This document shows, one piece after another, positions 26,317 through 33,712 of a DNA stretch of 38,329 nt. A program made the position numbers and the translations under genes. A model generated the notes under the pieces. The model was given only the letters and a program-made list of their open reading frames with translations, ran no database searches and was not told the origin of the DNA. Numbering within the stretch: the stretch's first letter is position 1; each line of letters opens with the position of its first letter. Location of the stretch: the IMG/VR virus record IMGVR_UViG_3300044723_002769, positions 1-38,329 of that record; one strand, 5' to 3'. This DNA comes from a virus. Lineage: Duplodnaviria; Caudoviricetes.

Positions 26317-26399
26317 TCTTCTTCACATCCTTTAATAATTCTCGTTGATTTCCATTTTCTTAATATCCATTCTTTAGTCATATAATCTTCGTCTTCCAT
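26313..26399 (-). CDS. Micro-ORF (28 aa)
   Basis: MEDEDYMTKEW...; stop-start overlaps on both sides. Confidence 0.4.
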   Translation of the reverse strand: MEDEDYMTKEWILRKWKSTRIIKGCEEE

Positions 26400-26803
26400 T
26401 ATGTAAACCAACCTTCCTTAAATCTAGTAAGTTCCTTATGTGTGGTGAAATATCTAGGTGATTCTAAATCATCTAATCTATTGGCTACCCAAATAACTCC
26501 ACCCAAACTACTTATCTTAACAATTTCATATTGTCTCTTCTCATCACACTCGAATATTTCTTCTGTATTAACTTCGGGTACTAAACCGTAGTTTCTAGAT
26601 AATTCAGTTGCTATTTGTTCAAGGTTATTAGAAACATATTGTACTATTAGATTTCGTTGTATTGGAACTTTAGCGTCAACTACTAACTTCATCTTACCTG
26701 TCATGTCGCAGACTTTACATTTGTTTCCTTCACAAATAGGACATAGTATTTCAGCAGGTAGTGGGGCAGGGAACTGAATAGTAACCGCCTTGTGTTTAAC
26801 CAT
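26399..26803 (-). CDS. Protein with DnaJ-like Zn-finger motif
   Basis: CPICEG..CKVCDMTG. Confidence 0.6.
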   Translation of the reverse strand: MVKHKAVTIQFPAPLPAEILCPICEGNKCKVCDMTGKMKLVVDAKVPIQRNLIVQYVSNNLEQIATELSRNYGLVPEVNTEEIFECDEKRQYEIVKISSLGGVIWVANRLDDLESPRYFTTHKELTRFKEGWFT

Positions 26804-27694: not shown

Positions 27695-28267
27695 TTATTC
27701 TTCACCGTCCTTTACAGGTTCTATATCATCAAAAACTGTTTGTTGTAGTAAACCGTAGAAAACCTTCTTTGCAGAATAAGTTCCTTCTTCATATTGTTCA
27801 TTGTTCATGTTAACAGCAAGATATTGATTATCTCCAAGTACTATTGCACTCTTCATCATAGTATTCCAAGTATTTACAGTTCTCCAATCAGTACTGCTTA
27901 GGTACGCTTCTCCAAAAGGATGAGTATGAATCCAACTCTTAATCGGTATTCTCATTGGTGCGCCATTTACTAATTCGTCTTCATGTCCTTGAAAAGATAC
28001 GAAAGCGGGAGTACCGCTACTAATATACAAATCATCTTTGTCATCTATTACTACTTGTACTTCCATACCTTCTAACACTTCATCGGACATTTGCCAAATA
28101 GCAGATAGAAACATTTCTGTATCTGCACACGGCCTAATAAAATTAACACCGCCTTCACTATTAGACATATCCTTGTAAACACTTCTGATGTGTTCTTTCC
28201 AATCAAAGTCTTTCATTGCTTCTTCATTTTCTTCATTATTTATTTCTTCTTTATTTTCTTCTTTCAT
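27695..28267 (-). CDS. JAB/JAMM (MPN+) metallo-isopeptidase
   Basis: E...HTHPFGEAYLSSTD matches E-xn-HxH-x7-S-xx-D. Confidence 0.88.
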   Translation of the reverse strand: MKEENKEEINNEENEEAMKDFDWKEHIRSVYKDMSNSEGGVNFIRPCADTEMFLSAIWQMSDEVLEGMEVQVVIDDKDDLYISSGTPAFVSFQGHEDELVNGAPMRIPIKSWIHTHPFGEAYLSSTDWRTVNTWNTMMKSAIVLGDNQYLAVNMNNEQYEEGTYSAKKVFYGLLQQTVFDDIEPVKDGEE

Positions 28268-28269
28268 TT

Positions 28270-28512
28270 TTATATTCCCCCCATTTGTTCTACCATAAAG
28301 TCTTGAGAGTTCTCAAACTCATGGAATGCTTTATGTCCGGCTATGAAACCACCTGCGTGTCTTTTAGTTCCCATGAACTCTTCTAGACAAACAGGACAAC
28401 ATACCTTGACTATTTCTGCTTGTAAGTAAAAACCATCTGTTGCAATAACATTCATTATATTACCTACATCTTCTTCTATTAAATCATCTATTTCTGTATC
28501 TTCTTCACTCAT
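28270..28512 (-). CDS. C2H2-type Zn-finger protein
   Basis: CPVC...HKAFH; between the E1 and JAMM genes. Confidence 0.65.
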   Translation of the reverse strand: MSEEDTEIDDLIEEDVGNIMNVIATDGFYLQAEIVKVCCPVCLEEFMGTKRHAGGFIAGHKAFHEFENSQDFMVEQMGGI

Positions 28513-29138
28513 ACATTCACAACCATTTTATCTGTTACATCATTATTATCGTTAAACCAACGTTGAATCCATTGAGTCGCAATACCTGCTATGGCAATGT
28601 GCATAGTACTAATATCTTTAGCAGAACCATCCCAATCACCGCCTTGACAACTGAATGAACCTTCTGCACCAACAAGTAAGTCAGGTATTAATGTGGGATT
28701 AACTTTGTATGAAATCAATACTCCGTTCCTACCTTGCGCTCTAAGGTCTAACCACTTAACAGGACTATCTTCACCATGTCCTGTTTTGTAAAGTAGTCTT
28801 CTTGCTGCTAAGTTATCCACACAGCAGATTACTAAATCATATTTCTTTTCAGTTAATTGTTTAGCAGTAAGGACTTGATGTTCTCTTTTGTCGTTTAATG
28901 CAGGTTGTATTCCAATCTTGTTTCCCAATACTCTAACTTTAGATTTACCAATATCTTCAACATTAAAATTCTGATAAGACAAGTTCTTTTCTTCTACCTT
29001 ATCATCATCGTAAATTGTAATATCATACAACGCTTGTCTTTCTTCACTAATTCTTTCTAGGAAAGATGCTAGATAACTACCTATTCCACCTGCCCCAATT
29101 ATCAATAATTTTCTTTGTTTTAATTTCTTTGTTTTCAT
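28509..29138 (-). CDS. E1-like (ThiF/MoeB/UbaA family) Ubl-activating enzyme
   Basis: IIGAGGIGS, DDDKVEEKNLSYQ, IGKSKV, CVDNLAAR; candidate catalytic Cys in SCQ. Confidence 0.92.
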   Translation of the reverse strand: MKTKKLKQRKLLIIGAGGIGSYLASFLERISEERQALYDITIYDDDKVEEKNLSYQNFNVEDIGKSKVRVLGNKIGIQPALNDKREHQVLTAKQLTEKKYDLVICCVDNLAARRLLYKTGHGEDSPVKWLDLRAQGRNGVLISYKVNPTLIPDLLVGAEGSFSCQGGDWDGSAKDISTMHIAIAGIATQWIQRWFNDNNDVTDKMVVNV

Positions 29139-29419
29139 TCTAATTCCTCTTTTTCATATATTTCTTTTGGTTCTGTTTCAGAAAGAGACAAGTGATATTC
29201 ATGTTCTGTTTCCCATAGATTCGTAAATATTAGTAATTCTTTGTCTGAAACAGTAGCGGTAAAAATAGTACCGCTTTGCATATGAATATCTAATTCATAT
29301 TTTGCCTTAGACAAGACTCCTTTCTTTGCTATCTCTCTTATGGAAAAAGCAGTACAATAATTAATATCTATTGTAGTTCTTCCTGTTGTTGTTCCCATTG
29401 TCATTTTTCTTCTTATCAT
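29135..29419 (-). CDS. Small beta-rich (PH-like) protein
   Basis: Pattern shared with 19751-19990 and 34385-34672. Confidence 0.55.
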   Translation of the reverse strand: MIRRKMTMGTTTGRTTIDINYCTAFSIREIAKKGVLSKAKYELDIHMQSGTIFTATVSDKELLIFTNLWETEHEYHLSLSETEPKEIYEKEELE

Positions 29420-29420
29420 T

Positions 29421-30353
29421 TTATCTTACTCCATTCATTATATTTTTTGTTGTATATGACCTTAACTTAGTTTTGTCTAAATTAAGATTTACACACATCT
29501 TTCTTGTTTTTTCTCTTATTGTTACTTCACTAACTGTACTACAATCTCCAAGTGCAACTTGTGTAATACTTTTTGAATTATAATTTTGTCCTACAATCCA
29601 TATTGCTGCTACTATATCGCTAACAGTAAAAGTCAAATCAAAATTATCATAACATTGTTTTGCATAATCTACAAAATTATAACAATCCATTCTAAAGTTT
29701 CCCTCTATCTTCTCTTTAAATCTAGTTTTTTCTCTAGAGTTTAGTTTGACTATAATACTAGAAACCATTTCGTCTGTATTTAATTGACTAAATATGTGTG
29801 ATTTACCGAACTTTCTAGTTACTCTTTTTGATGTTCTCATAATATTTTTTACGGGAACTTTAATTTTCTTAGAATAATCTTTTAGGGAAACCGGAATACC
29901 TCTTTCCTTTAGTACATAATATACAATACCTGCTGCTACGTCATCTAAAGGTAAACCTCTAACTAAATGTTCGTCTTTTAATATTCTATATTTTTTAATA
30001 ACTTCATTTTTTAATTTACCACCATTGTAATATGAAAGGTATATACCCGTAGCAACTAACACTTTATTTTCTGAATCATTATGATTTGTTCTCATATTGT
30101 TTGTTCTCAAAGCATAATCAGTTTTACTTTTAACATCCTTTCTTTCAATAATAGAACCTAATTTATATGAGTCAGTCGAGTTTTGAAAGTAATTATTTCT
30201 GATGTAACCTTTACTTTTTTCTGTTGAGAAAAAATTTTTATTAGTTTCTTCAAATATATTTACTGATAATATCAAACCACAATCAGCACAAATAGTTTCA
30301 CCCATTCTTTCATCGAAAGTTGTAGTGGTGGATTCGCATTCAAAACACTTCAT
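29421..30353 (-). CDS. tfb: Viral transcription factor B (TFIIB-like)
   Basis: N-terminal Zn ribbon CFEC...GETICADCGL; cyclin-fold repeats VAAGIVY and TQ..LG..STVSEVTIR. Confidence 0.88.
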   Translation of the reverse strand: MKCFECESTTTTFDERMGETICADCGLILSVNIFEETNKNFFSTEKSKGYIRNNYFQNSTDSYKLGSIIERKDVKSKTDYALRTNNMRTNHNDSENKVLVATGIYLSYYNGGKLKNEVIKKYRILKDEHLVRGLPLDDVAAGIVYYVLKERGIPVSLKDYSKKIKVPVKNIMRTSKRVTRKFGKSHIFSQLNTDEMVSSIIVKLNSREKTRFKEKIEGNFRMDCYNFVDYAKQCYDNFDLTFTVSDIVAAIWIVGQNYNSKSITQVALGDCSTVSEVTIREKTRKMCVNLNLDKTKLRSYTTKNIMNGVR

Positions 30354-30436
30354 TTCATCACCATTATCCTACAACAATCGCTATCTTTAACCCGAAGGTC
30401 GCCTAGTTCTTTTTTACATTTATTACATATTTTCAT
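30350..30436 (-). CDS. Cys-rich micro-ORF (28 aa, MKICNKCKK...DCC)
   Basis: Abuts the upstream stop and has an ATGA overlap with tfb. Confidence 0.45.
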   Translation of the reverse strand: MKICNKCKKELGDLRVKDSDCCRIMVMK

Positions 30437-31819
30437 TTATTCATTCTCCTTCATTCTTTTCTTGTGTAAATATTCATCACACTTTCTTTGACTCCAATGG
30501 TTTAACTTAGACCTATCTAATCTAGCCATAACTCTACTTCCATTTTTCAAATCATCGTCTATTAACGGTCTAATTGTATAGAGATGATGTGCTGCTACAT
30601 CTTCATTTACCAATGCTAATGCCCTCGCTGTTAGTTGGTCTCCGATACTAGCACCCTTAGAAACATTGTCAATACAAATAGAACCGGAAAGTTTCATACC
30701 ATGCCAATTTCCTCTTTCGTCAGAGAAACCAACTATTTGATGAGTACTAACATCTTGATTACCTCTTTTCATACCATCACCTGTATAAGTAACAACCCAA
30801 TCACAATACTTACCATGAACAAATAATGCTTTATTCTTAGGGTTTCTGAATTGTACGAAGTCAATCTGAGGTGTTTCTGCTGCAATATCGAACAACAATT
30901 TAGTTGCCCTATCTTCTACAATATCAGAAGTTCTATGTTGTAATAACCATTGAGTCATTTTCTCTAATTCTGTTGCGGTTGGTTTGCTACCCATTGTTTG
31001 TTCCCAAAGGAACTCGTTAGTAACACCAACATTCCATTTCTTACTCCTCTTCTTACCGAACTTAAAGTAATCAATAAAGGTACTCAATTCTTTAGTAGAT
31101 AGAACACCCCAAACACTGTCAGATATTTCTAATACACATTCGTCATCACTAATTAGTTTAGTATTGATAACAACCTCTGTTTGTCTAAATAGATGATTAA
31201 AATGATATGGTGTTCTATTTTCCAAAGCATATAGGACATTATGAGGAAAGGTAGTAACTTTTACTGCGTAAGTAGTTAATTGTTTTGAACACTTTGTTAG
31301 TGCTGCTCTTAGAATTATCTTACTAATCGCTTTAACTACATCTGCTTTGTTTCTAGGTAATCCGTTAATATAATATCTTTTATTAGTGCGACCATAGAAT
31401 ATTTTACTTTGGCCGTTGTAATATTTGAAAGATATTGTATTCATAAAATTATCTTTATCGGTATCGTAAAGTTTGTGAGGAAAAAGAACTTCCTCGACTT
31501 TCTTAGAAAGAGATTCTAGAACAGGGTCAGAACCTTCCACAGAAGTATTCATGTGAGTTCTTCTACAAGTAACAATTCTTTCACCAAACGAATTTAGATT
31601 TTTTGTTTTATAATCATAAACTTTGTCTGAGTTAGACAAATGTCTGTATGAGTCTAAACCCTTTTTTTTAGCAATCACGGCACTCTTAGTTCTGTTTATA
31701 TTTCGCTCATATAGTGTGCGGAATATTTTCTTGTTGTTATTTTCGATTCTTAATAATAGACTTGATGTAATTTGATTTCCACCATCACCTACTGTTGGTA
31801 TTATATATTTTATTTTCAT
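30437..31819 (-). CDS. Large protein with putative C-terminal E2/UBC-like domain
   Basis: Predicted helix, 4 strands, then H-x5-GSICID and a helix, resembling the E2 active-site region; clustered with Ubl, E1 and JAMM. Confidence 0.5.
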   Translation of the reverse strand: MKIKYIIPTVGDGGNQITSSLLLRIENNNKKIFRTLYERNINRTKSAVIAKKKGLDSYRHLSNSDKVYDYKTKNLNSFGERIVTCRRTHMNTSVEGSDPVLESLSKKVEEVLFPHKLYDTDKDNFMNTISFKYYNGQSKIFYGRTNKRYYINGLPRNKADVVKAISKIILRAALTKCSKQLTTYAVKVTTFPHNVLYALENRTPYHFNHLFRQTEVVINTKLISDDECVLEISDSVWGVLSTKELSTFIDYFKFGKKRSKKWNVGVTNEFLWEQTMGSKPTATELEKMTQWLLQHRTSDIVEDRATKLLFDIAAETPQIDFVQFRNPKNKALFVHGKYCDWVVTYTGDGMKRGNQDVSTHQIVGFSDERGNWHGMKLSGSICIDNVSKGASIGDQLTARALALVNEDVAAHHLYTIRPLIDDDLKNGSRVMARLDRSKLNHWSQRKCDEYLHKKRMKENE

Positions 31820-32075
31820 TTTTAATTTCTCCTTTTATTATTTGAATATTATTTCTTTTTTGTTTTTGTGTAAGGTGTGTTTTACAATAAAGACTATCTC
31901 TATATTTAATTTTCTTACACCTTTCACCTTTGTTAGTAATCCCGACACACCTTTCTTCCGGTGGTGGATTTCTAATACAAGAAAAACACAAATTAGTTGT
32001 TGAGTTTTTTCTTGATGTATGATTTCTTGTTCCTAATTTTTCATTACATATTCTACATTTCATTTTTATTCCCAT
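31785..32075 (-). CDS. Double Zn-finger protein
   Basis: CRIC...CFSC plus C.G.T.KG.RC...YC..H. Confidence 0.65.
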   Translation of the reverse strand: MGIKMKCRICNEKLGTRNHTSRKNSTTNLCFSCIRNPPPEERCVGITNKGERCKKIKYRDSLYCKTHLTQKQKRNNIQIIKGEIKNENKIYNTNSR

Positions 32076-32092
32076 CTTTTTTTTTTATTTTT

Positions 32093-32195
32093 AATGGGCA
32101 TCCCACCCATTTGATAACAACTCCCGTTATTGGGATTACTTAACAGTGCAATGCACCATATAGTAATTACCGATAGATACTATAATCTATGGTAA
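32093..32195. other. Cluster of abutting hairpins downstream of the Ubl gene
   Basis: ATGGG/CCCAT, TCCC/GGGA, TTACT..GTGCA/TGCAC..AGTAA and TTACC.ATAGAT/ATCTAT.GGTAA. Confidence 0.4.
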
Positions 32196-32216
32196 GATAG
32201 TAACACTTTAACAGAA

Positions 32217-32426
32217 TTATTGGTTTCCGCCAACAATTGCTTGAACAAGGTTAACAGTTTCAACATCATTCCAATTTATGTCGCTAATAGATTCACGGCT
32301 AACCATGTCATTATCAACATAAACCCAATGAGTTGGGTGTTCTGCTATCTGTTCAATCATCTCAGATGTCGTAACATCTAATTCTGTATGTCCTCTTTCA
32401 TTCATTATTCTCAATTTCATTTTCAT
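32217..32426 (-). CDS. Ubiquitin-like (beta-grasp) protein with GG plus 2-aa extension
   Basis: 69 aa; strand-strand-helix-strand layout (WVYVDN); ends VNLVQAIVGG-NQ. Confidence 0.8.
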   Translation of the reverse strand: MKMKLRIMNERGHTELDVTTSEMIEQIAEHPTHWVYVDNDMVSRESISDINWNDVETVNLVQAIVGGNQ

Positions 32427-32454: not shown

Positions 32455-32721
32455 TTAAGACTGTGTTGACTGTCTCGCTTGATTAAGCGTGTTCTCTAAC
32501 GATGATATGTAAGATTTTAATTCTCTCTTATCACCGAGGAGTTGTGTTTGCATTGCTTCATAGACTTCTATCTTTTGACGCAAATCTTGCACTGTTTTCT
32601 CAAGACTTTGAGCGTATGTTAAAAGATTTGTGTAATCTCCTTTCATGCTCTCAATAATCTGTTCACTAGTTATTTCCGGTTGTTTTTCTTCTTTCTTTTC
32701 TTCTTTCTTAGCCATTTTCAT
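32455..32721 (-). CDS. Coiled-coil protein
   Basis: Heptad-like Q/E/K/L pattern. Confidence 0.6.
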   Translation of the reverse strand: MKMAKKEEKKEEKQPEITSEQIIESMKGDYTNLLTYAQSLEKTVQDLRQKIEVYEAMQTQLLGDKRELKSYISSLENTLNQARQSTQS

Positions 32722-33712
32722 GCACCTCGTTATCTCCTAAGAGAATATCATTACGTCTTCGTAAGATATTAATAAGACTATCGCATTGTTTGGGTGAAGG
32801 TCTCTCCATCCTCACAATTTTCCTTCTCATATCTCTTAGAAATCTTCTTTCCCAATTATTTTGGGCTTCGCCTGTTGTAAAAGGTCTAATTCCGAAATAT
32901 TTACAACAATGTAAAAACTTTTGTTGGTCTAAATCATTATCATTTACTGTAACTAATTTCTTAGTAATATATGAATCAACATTATCTAAATGAATTATTC
33001 TATTAGAATCAATGGAGTCCATCTTATTTACAATATCCAAATGTTTTTGCATATTGATTTTAAATAAAACTAAATCTTCCATAAGTTTATCATTTGGAGT
33101 TCCTCTTTTACTATCTCTTTGTCTTCTAGGATTGTCGGGATGATTCCATCTCCAAACAATAGAAGCCATTTCATAGGTAGGAGTACCATACAAACCATTA
33201 CTACTTTTACGAATAAAGGTCTCAGGTCTGTAATCTTTAACAGATTCTTCCCAATATGTTTTTCCTGTTTTCTTAACATTGATTCTCAAATCTAATTCTT
33301 TAATTTCATCAAAAGTATTAGTAAACTCTTTGCCATTTTCTTCCCACCAAGCATCTTTAATTAAAGTTTGAACAGCAGTCTGCTTCCAATCTTCAATCAT
33401 CTTCTCAGTAATAGTTCTCCTATCTATTTTCAATTTCTCTTCCATATGTCGAAGAACCATCCAATTATTAATACAACTTGAACCTACAATTTCTAGTATT
33501 CCATTTTCAGTATTTTCAATTTCAAAATGATAAACTATATCGTGTCCGCAAAGACAAGAATTAGGATGTCCTGAAACATGATTACTTGTTGTTTCATTAG
33601 GAGACTGTTTCCAAACATTTCCTGTAATTCTCCATTCCTTTTTTGCTTCTTCATAATCATTAGAATTAGATAATGCTAGTAATTTATTTGTTAATCTACT
33701 GTAAGTAGCCAT
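32708..33712 (-). CDS. Conserved viral protein with CxCGH...VGSxC Zn motif
   Basis: CLCGHDIVYHFEIEN...VGSSCI. Confidence 0.6.
   Translation of the reverse strand: MATYSRLTNKLLALSNSNDYEEAKKEWRITGNVWKQSPNETTSNHVSGHPNSCLCGHDIVYHFEIENTENGILEIVGSSCINNWMVLRHMEEKLKIDRRTITEKMIEDWKQTAVQTLIKDAWWEENGKEFTNTFDEIKELDLRINVKKTGKTYWEESVKDYRPETFIRKSSNGLYGTPTYEMASIVWRWNHPDNPRRQRDSKRGTPNDKLMEDLVLFKINMQKHLDIVNKMDSIDSNRIIHLDNVDSYITKKLVTVNDNDLDQQKFLHCCKYFGIRPFTTGEAQNNWERRFLRDMRRKIVRMERPSPKQCDSLINILRRRNDILLGDNEVHENG

Follow-up and report, generated by a model that had tools for sequence, protein, structure and literature searches.

The stretch of DNA analysed here (the window; 38,329 nucleotides, or 38.3 kb, from one single virus record, IMGVR_UViG_3300044723_002769) carries on its minus strand, between positions 27695 and 32426, genes for a ubiquitin-like modifier (Ubl), a minimal activating enzyme (E1) and a JAMM zinc protease, together with the gene for a 460-aa protein predicted to be a conjugating enzyme (E2). 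By sequence comparison, these four genes are a conserved viral gene set, and together they probably encode a self-contained cascade that would add single Ubl tags to protein lysines during infection without the help of a ligase (E3). An earlier note on this DNA had proposed that the virus carries its own protein-tagging cascade. For Ubl, E1, E2 candidate and JAMM this is still the best reading, while the double zinc finger, the cysteine-rich micro-ORF and the 94-aa gene that the note had included are not core.

From the anatomy of the proteins and the chemistry of the Bil systems we infer the following steps. The JAMM protease would clip the one or two residues that follow Gly67 of the Ubl; the E1, probably as a homodimer, would adenylate the glycine and take the Ubl as a thioester on Cys164; and the Ubl would be handed to Cys382 of the 460-aa protein. 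The latter would ligate it without an E3, the target being chosen by its N-terminal part of ~290 aa and by the variable loop before Cys382, and the JAMM protease could finally take the tag off again. The target might be a protein of transcription or replication, from either host or virus, a guess based on the way in which the gene set wraps round the TFB gene in the replication arm of the genome.

Conservation of the gene set

All nine open reading frames (ORFs) listed in the earlier note were found, and all of them lie on the minus strand within 27695-32426. A query with the E1 returned 25 viral loci, 23 of which are syntenic relatives, and a profile of the 460-aa protein returned 80 loci (79 of them new), of which the 60 with enough flank were used for order counts. 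Besides, loci were picked with a profile of the ATP-dependent ligase (the best 80 of 573, 44 of them with 9 kb upstream); as this profile was built from cassette-bearing viruses, it is not an entirely independent control. Near-copies occur among the loci: at 85%, the first 104 correspond to 56 distinct 460-aa proteins.

The genes for Ubl, 460-aa protein, TFB, E1 and JAMM occur in identical order and on the same strand in all 60 full-length related loci, and the last four are present in each of the 44 ligase-picked loci. The Ubl is visible in 34 of these 44; in the other ten, the 460-aa gene starts at most 2.7 kb from the locus edge, so that the Ubl would fall outside. A single copy of it is present in 20 of the 21 long records; the remaining one (G012) gave no match, and there the locus begins at a contig end, 1.3 kb ahead of the 460-aa gene. 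Together with dN/dS values of 0.03-0.37 against four close relatives, the order kept in 60/60 loci indicates that the ORF set is more than chance, and the co-occurrence in related viruses on which the earlier proposal had staked itself was found throughout (60/60 and 44/44 loci). The compact arrangement of 4.7 kb described before is peculiar to the lineage of the window. In more distant relatives, a class II ribonucleotide reductase (RNR) of ~630 aa intervenes between Ubl and 460-aa gene, an RNR that the lineage of the window lacks.

Library scans of the minus-strand arm of the window identified a split PolB, RFC, an ATP-dependent ligase, an ERCC4 nuclease, a UvrD helicase and TFB, which is the same gene set as in the ICTV profile of the Magrovirales (PMC10768690). 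Split PolB, RFC, ligase, TFB and SF1 helicase, as well as a Caudoviricetes genome of 90-100 kb, mark an Aoguangviridae-like member of this order, which the window and its relatives resemble; the relatives measure 77-103 kb, and one of them (G001) encodes a major capsid protein, a portal and a prohead protease. By its gene content, the window is a fragment of a magrovirus-like genome, and the likeness to Magrovirales makes Poseidoniales archaea the likely host.

Modifier, activating enzyme and protease

The Ubl gene (32217-32426, minus strand) encodes 69 aa (67 from the second Met) and ends VGG-NQ, i.e. with Gly66-Gly67 and a two-residue tail. Its AlphaFold2 (AF2) model reached a mean pLDDT of 89, and the Foldseek rows listed are ubiquitin, SUMO, NEDD8, ISG15 and related domains (probability 0.95-0.99, E of at least 2.6e-3), with Caldiarchaeum ubiquitin among them and none titled ThiS or MoaD. 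The 69-aa protein is hence predicted to adopt a ubiquitin/SUMO-like beta-grasp fold, a point on which the earlier proposal hinged. A PDB sequence search with the Ubl profile did not match any Ubl.

The Gly-Gly is invariant (42/42 sequences), whereas the tail behind it varies in sequence and is 0-2 aa long in 165 of 173 distinct Ubls: five end at GG, 66 have one further residue, 94 have two, four have three to five and four show a long read-through. In most cases no start codon follows closely, which argues that the GG is not an effect of a ribosome-binding site, and core lysines are absent from 146 of the 173, so that chains are unlikely. At 90% identity, the 1366 candidates fall into 919 clusters, and in the Atlas the family is represented by viral clusters. 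A search for longer or tandem Ubls yielded one 146-aa fusion among 7999 scored candidates, and no shared hairpin after the Ubl was evident in the subset of loci examined.

The E1 (28509-29138, minus strand; 209 aa) belongs to the ThiF family (Pfam ThiF 1.9e-18, above cut-off), with UBA5 as its best PDB match (1.5e-10). Its adenylation motifs GxGGxG, DxD, Lys and D-N are invariant columns. Cys164, placed after the core and invariant in 41/41 sequences, is the presumed catalytic cysteine; C106 is invariant, too. The features of MoeB/UbaA-type E1s, namely zinc-binding CxxC pairs and an N-terminal extension, were not seen: CxxC occurs in 0/41 E1s, and just 7-16 residues (25 in one case) lie ahead of GxGGxG.

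The JAMM/JAB zinc protease (27695-28267, minus strand; E69, H114, H116, S124, D127) has no Pfam match. Its motif E...HxH-x7-S-x2-D is intact in 48/48 sequences, and its profile matches AMSH-LP (1e-5) and an Rpn11-like protein (6fjv; 1.3e-5). Six loci whose Ubl ends at GG keep the full motif, which suggests that the protease, beyond trimming, also removes conjugates.

Since the E1 is a ThiF-family protein, the genes could alternatively serve a sulfur relay, with the Ubl as thiocarboxylate carrier for the thiolation of a host or viral tRNA, cofactor or DNA base. Sulfur carriers trimmed by a JAMM protease are on record (PMC1779556), JGI labels some of these Ubls ThiS, moeB is a VIBRANT category in a magrovirus supplement (PMC10160649), and the client could be encoded by the host. 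However, a relay leaves the E2-like domain unexplained, the Ubl fold rows are of the ubiquitin type, and JAMM is retained where trimming is unneeded. The earlier remark that the window holds no sulfur-relay genes could moreover be extended: ThiG, MoaE, rhodanese and PF01171 (TtuA/TilS family) were found in 0 of 21 relatives, of which 16 have a completeness of 90% or more, in a survey of viral genomes only, in which controls were detected in 11-14 of 14. Likewise, Pfam assignments for 98 of 100 ORFs of G001 (at least 85 aa, the two longest left out) included no sulfur client and no RING. Taken together, we consider a sulfur relay very improbable.

The 460-aa protein as predicted E2

The 460-aa protein (30437-31819, minus strand) consists of an N-terminal part of ~290 aa without assigned fold and a predicted C-terminal UBC/RWD-type domain (residues ~296-435), in which the motif GSICID surrounds Cys382. 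Its AF2 model has a pLDDT of 88. When compared by VIA with 48,161 chains, residues ~296-435 align to E2, UEV or RWD domains in 41 of 50 rows, Cap2 and BubB included, a tally made from row titles. Of the five Foldseek rows on this region with a probability above 0.12, four are E2 chains (0.28-0.41), all non-significant.

Cys382 is conserved in 76/76 and 57/57 sequences and, among full-length representatives with identities as low as 14%, in 91 of 92, the lone exception diverging after strand 4. It is the sole conserved cysteine (the other five are not) and sits after strand 4 and before a long helix (392-404), as in E2s, with 15-95 residues in the loop that leads from strand 4 to it. Once the background given by the ligase and the 334-aa gene upstream of the Ubl is removed, distances of the 460-aa protein follow those of Ubl (0.35) and E1 (0.34) above those of TFB (0.13), descriptive values from pairs that are not independent. 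The family comprises 192 clusters at 50% identity; the longest contig in ten sampled clusters is, at 92 kb, virus-sized, and BFVD returned just three full-length relatives. A predicted complex of the E1 with the E2-like domain (residues 283-447) scored 0.01, for which the tool's verdict was 'no answer' and which is evidence for neither side. Given the weak fold similarity and the one conserved cysteine, the 460-aa protein is, in our judgement, quite probably an E2.

Counter-evidence and alternatives

Several observations weigh against a complete cascade. The TM-scores of the Ubl are just 0.41-0.50, and its Foldseek E values lie above 1e-3. The E1 is devoid of an N-terminal extension and a zinc site, and mostly reads KNxxYQ, with a Tyr at the position where E1s usually have an ATP-binding Arg; the invariant R113, R133 and R137 may compensate for it, or the E1 chemistry may be altered. 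As to the E2-like GSICID domain claimed in the earlier note, the conserved cysteine and the E2/UEV/RWD rows speak for it, but the match is weak, with a best VIA Z of 5.4 (guide value of the tool, 8), an rmsd of 3-4 A and no Foldseek match for the model at E 1e-3. Neither PDB profile searches nor Pfam on 76 members, the ESM Atlas or hhalign found a sequence link to E2s, and Cys382 was equated with the catalytic cysteine of E2s from secondary structure and a motif, with no superposition displayed. The HPN motif is present in 0/92 sequences and the domain has no conserved His, whereas BilB, the E2 of the Bil system, carries a His beside its Cys (PMC10557695). The genes do not make up a tight operon either, as RNR, TFB and variable ORFs interleave those of the cascade. 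Finally, neighbours unrelated to the Ubl are about equally syntenic (the 334-aa gene in 60/60 loci), so that synteny alone is no proof of a shared pathway.

The weak fold match and the lack of a sequence link to any E2, as well as the fact that the 460-aa gene always adjoins TFB, would also agree with SAMP-like tagging by the E1 alone, the 460-aa protein then being an unrelated cysteine enzyme or a transcription partner of TFB. Haloarchaeal sampylation is not known to need an E2. We nevertheless regard this as unlikely, as 41 of the 50 structural rows are of the UBC/UEV/RWD type, the only conserved cysteine has an E2-like position, and the distances follow Ubl and E1 above TFB.

Alternatively, the cascade might run, yet with a nucleic acid, a lipid or a hydroxyl as acceptor, or the set might mainly soak up or reverse a Ubl-based defence of the host. 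An E2 candidate without HPN or His would suit these cases, as would the oxyesters of Bub systems (PMC11601596) and the counter-defence role ascribed to Borg JAMMs (PMC12660748); among named Atlas clusters, the closest (score 0.84) is one of 170-aa ThiS-family proteins from Thermoplasmatota, a lead only. On the other hand, both presumed catalytic positions are Cys, as thioester cascades have, and counter-defence needs the protease alone, yet four genes stay together. Such alternative acceptors or a decoy role therefore appear rather improbable to us.

Relation to known systems

As an E3-less cascade acting on proteins, the viral set most likely works like Bil, yet it appears to be a member of neither Bil, PRTRC nor SAMP. 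BilABCD comprises the Ubl BilA, the E2 BilB, the JAB protease BilC and the E1 BilD, and the extended variable loop before the Cys of BilB was proposed to recognize targets without an E3 (PMC10557695). Common to both are the four parts with no E3 seen, a protease-removed residue after the Ubl Gly, conserved cysteines in the E1 and in the E2 or E2 candidate, and the variable loop. In contrast to a host defence operon, however, the genes described here are a viral core set interleaved with RNR and TFB; the viral E1 has 209 aa and neither an inactive adenylation domain (IAD) nor a zinc site, and the viral E2 candidate, which lacks the His, begins with an N-terminal part of ~290 aa. PADLOC 2.0 returned no Bil match for Ubl, 460-aa protein and JAMM, and a BilD match through the ThiF core alone.

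Iyer/Aravind class 6d or PRTRC-type operons combine Ubl, JAB, E1 and E2, a His after the Cys being the hallmark of 6d E2s (PMC1779556). The same four activities are predicted for the viral set, and PRTRC_ThiF is the best NCBIfam match of its E1, yet at 65.9 bits against a cut-off of 144.75. Besides, the 460-aa family (76 members) matched neither Prok-E2_D nor protein Y of crAss-type phages and lacks the post-Cys His.

Comparable sets were seen in bacteriophages. Three consecutive genes of Bacillus phage Edson (L121:2726-5810) encode Prok-E2_D, JAB and ThiF and are annotated as hypothetical, and crAss-type and related phages (L024:5207-8648, L025:3594-6851, L120:1412-5660, L122:1538-5669) encode primase, X, Y, JAB and ThiF. 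The crAss-type ThiF is annotated 'thiamine biosynthesis protein', and Y, with its His-rich...C-x-G motif, may be an E2. Judged by sequence, the Edson and crAss-type sets are analogous and non-orthologous to the magrovirus-like set; hhalign of the 460-aa family against Edson Prok-E2_D (probability 1.5%) and against the L024 partner gave no match. As crAss-type phages include cultured members, their system is testable.

The archaeal SAMP system is made up of SAMP1-3, UbaA and JAMM1. It resembles the viral set in its small beta-grasp protein with GG, its ThiF-type E1, its JAMM protease and its archaeal setting. The viral set differs in having an E2-like partner, a Ubl that must be trimmed and an E1 that lacks CxxC and scores 34 bits with the UbaA model (cut-off 450), and sulfur clients were not detected in the virus. 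Caldiarchaeum and Asgard archaea possess a Ub-E1-E2-RING-Rpn11 operon. Here, the likeness lies in the post-GG tail of the Ubl, the Rpn11-like match of the JAMM profile (6fjv) and Caldiarchaeum ubiquitin in the fold rows, and the difference in the lack of a RING among the Pfam matches of window and G001, the lack of a canonical UBC sequence match and the mostly lysine-free Ubl.

Ubiquitin-system genes do occur on other archaeal viruses and mobile elements: Nidhogg viruses of Helarchaeota encode three E1s (10.1101/2021.07.29.454249), and on Borgs one SAMP occurs besides numerous JAMMs (PMC12660748). From what is available of these sources, such single parts are thought to act on the host system, unlike the whole, conserved and virus-encoded set reported here. 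No description of a Ubl/E1/E2/JAMM set was found in literature listings on magroviruses, archaeal viruses and Poseidoniales, though the supplements of PMC11706807 or Zhou et al. 2023 (Environ Microbiol) may annotate the genes; the magrovirus texts searched contain only moeB, as the annotation category mentioned above (PMC10160649).

TFB, neighbouring and accessory genes

The viral TFB (29421-30353, minus strand; Zn_Ribbon_TF 5e-9, NCBIfam TFIIB 3e-12) always lies between E2 candidate and E1. Its distances track those of the Ubl least (0.00 after background removal). TFB can be regarded as linked to the cassette, and its fixed place makes transcription a lead. Upstream of the Ubl, a 334-aa protein without Pfam family (32708-33712) with conserved C53, C55, H57 and H62 and a WRWNH motif is found in 60/60 loci and might possibly be a metal-binding enzyme or a partner of the cascade. 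A 134-aa protein (26399-26803) with two CxxC pairs, not a Pfam RING, is highly conserved downstream of JAMM (54/60 loci).

Three ORFs that the earlier note had counted as parts of the system are present in the window, but were rejected as core parts because of their accessory distribution across loci. The 94-aa ORF, then called PH-like (29135-29419, minus strand), occurs in 23/60 loci at varying positions. The cysteine-rich micro-ORF of 28 aa (30350-30436, minus strand) is mobile and is located elsewhere in L020; its motif matched 14 distinct sequences, of which 13 are clear relatives. The 'double zinc finger' Zn96 (31785-32075, minus strand; 96 aa) occupies the site of the class II RNR of the relatives and was seen in 2/60 loci; it is joined to the end part of a ~105-aa ORF by a deletion of ~250 bp (junction near 31865), and its DUF5763/WRC matches stay below cut-off.

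A C2H2 finger as possible second tag

The 80-aa C2H2 zinc finger (28270-28512, minus strand), likewise accessory (30/60 loci), had been noticed before, yet its conserved tail had been overlooked: Gly-Gly plus one variable residue terminates 91 of 93 distinct homologues, which makes the protein a candidate second modifier or decoy. Among 59 families with at least 15 members, only Ubl (72/72) and finger (38/38) have a GG+1 tail in all members; the next family reaches 24%, and for the JAMM gene, which is just as coupled, the count is 2/104.

The finger tail overlaps the ribosome-binding site of the next gene. Its GG codons read GGAGGA in 58/93 homologues, an ATG follows closely in 85/93, and GGTGG persists out of frame in the two homologues that deviate, all of which is how a ribosome-binding site would look and speaks against a second tag. 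Conversely, cellular contigs of archaea also carry the finger, with either PCNA, Nop56 and fibrillarin or FtsY and prefoldin as neighbours, and at seven such loci, representing two contexts, the gene that follows is convergent. No ribosome-binding site is needed there, yet GG-X is retained with changed third codon positions. With evidence on both sides, the ribosome-binding-site explanation is neither accepted nor excluded, and the chances that the tail is under protein-level selection seem to us about even. It is doubtful that the finger, too, is processed by JAMM and E1 at its GG-X tail and coupled to proteins in a two-tag cascade, a reading reminiscent of CBASS, which attaches a non-ubiquitin protein.

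In a quick tree (76 columns, many open forks; the label 'cell' also takes in short viral pieces), cellular copies of the finger fall among viral ones at separate places, and archaea likely captured them from viruses, perhaps at least twice. Perhaps hosts kept the tail of the captured finger as a decoy against the viral cascade. On its own, the GG-X finger turned up in about three settings on contigs from archaeal cells (L312:6001-6243, L314:310-552, L340:5992-6240, L343, L345, L346, L348, L280:3642-3887), and with no cassette nearby on two contigs of the viral collection (L262, L264; GC 0.44).

Further occurrences of the cassette

A GTDB scan with two E1 motifs, which bears on close E1 relatives only, left 4 of 72 stretches confirmed and none of them archaeal: three virus-like contigs in bacterial metagenome-assembled genomes (MAGs) and one weak case. 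L105, L106 and L107 and the G023 contigs C18, C29 and C32 are magrovirus-like, carry the cassette and reside in bacterial MAGs, where they are probably mis-binned; each of the three G023 contigs has a Ubl, and L106 and L107 represent a divergent virus group with unchanged cassette order. In four metatranscriptomes, small contigs from close relatives span the region with a word share of 5-7%, which, for contigs, is no demonstration of transcription, and a scan for sigma-70 promoters, a consensus unsuited to archaea, stayed at chance level. G001 carries a second ATP-dependent ligase domain in a protein of at least 831 aa encoded between the portal and prohead protease genes (L109:17507-19999).

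Significance

Prokaryotic cascades of Ubl, E1, E2 and deubiquitinase have so far been characterized as host defences, whereas the full set described here behaves as a core gene set of a large marine family of archaeal viruses, whose Ubls form 919 clusters at 90% identity. If the proposed cascade is real, it would represent the viral side of archaeal ubiquitin-like conjugation, with an E1 of 209 aa and an E2 family unrecognized by the profile libraries used. Though virus and host are uncultured, the small parts can be reconstituted, which opens two questions to testing: the requirements of a minimal E3-less cascade and the suitability of a zinc finger as a tag.

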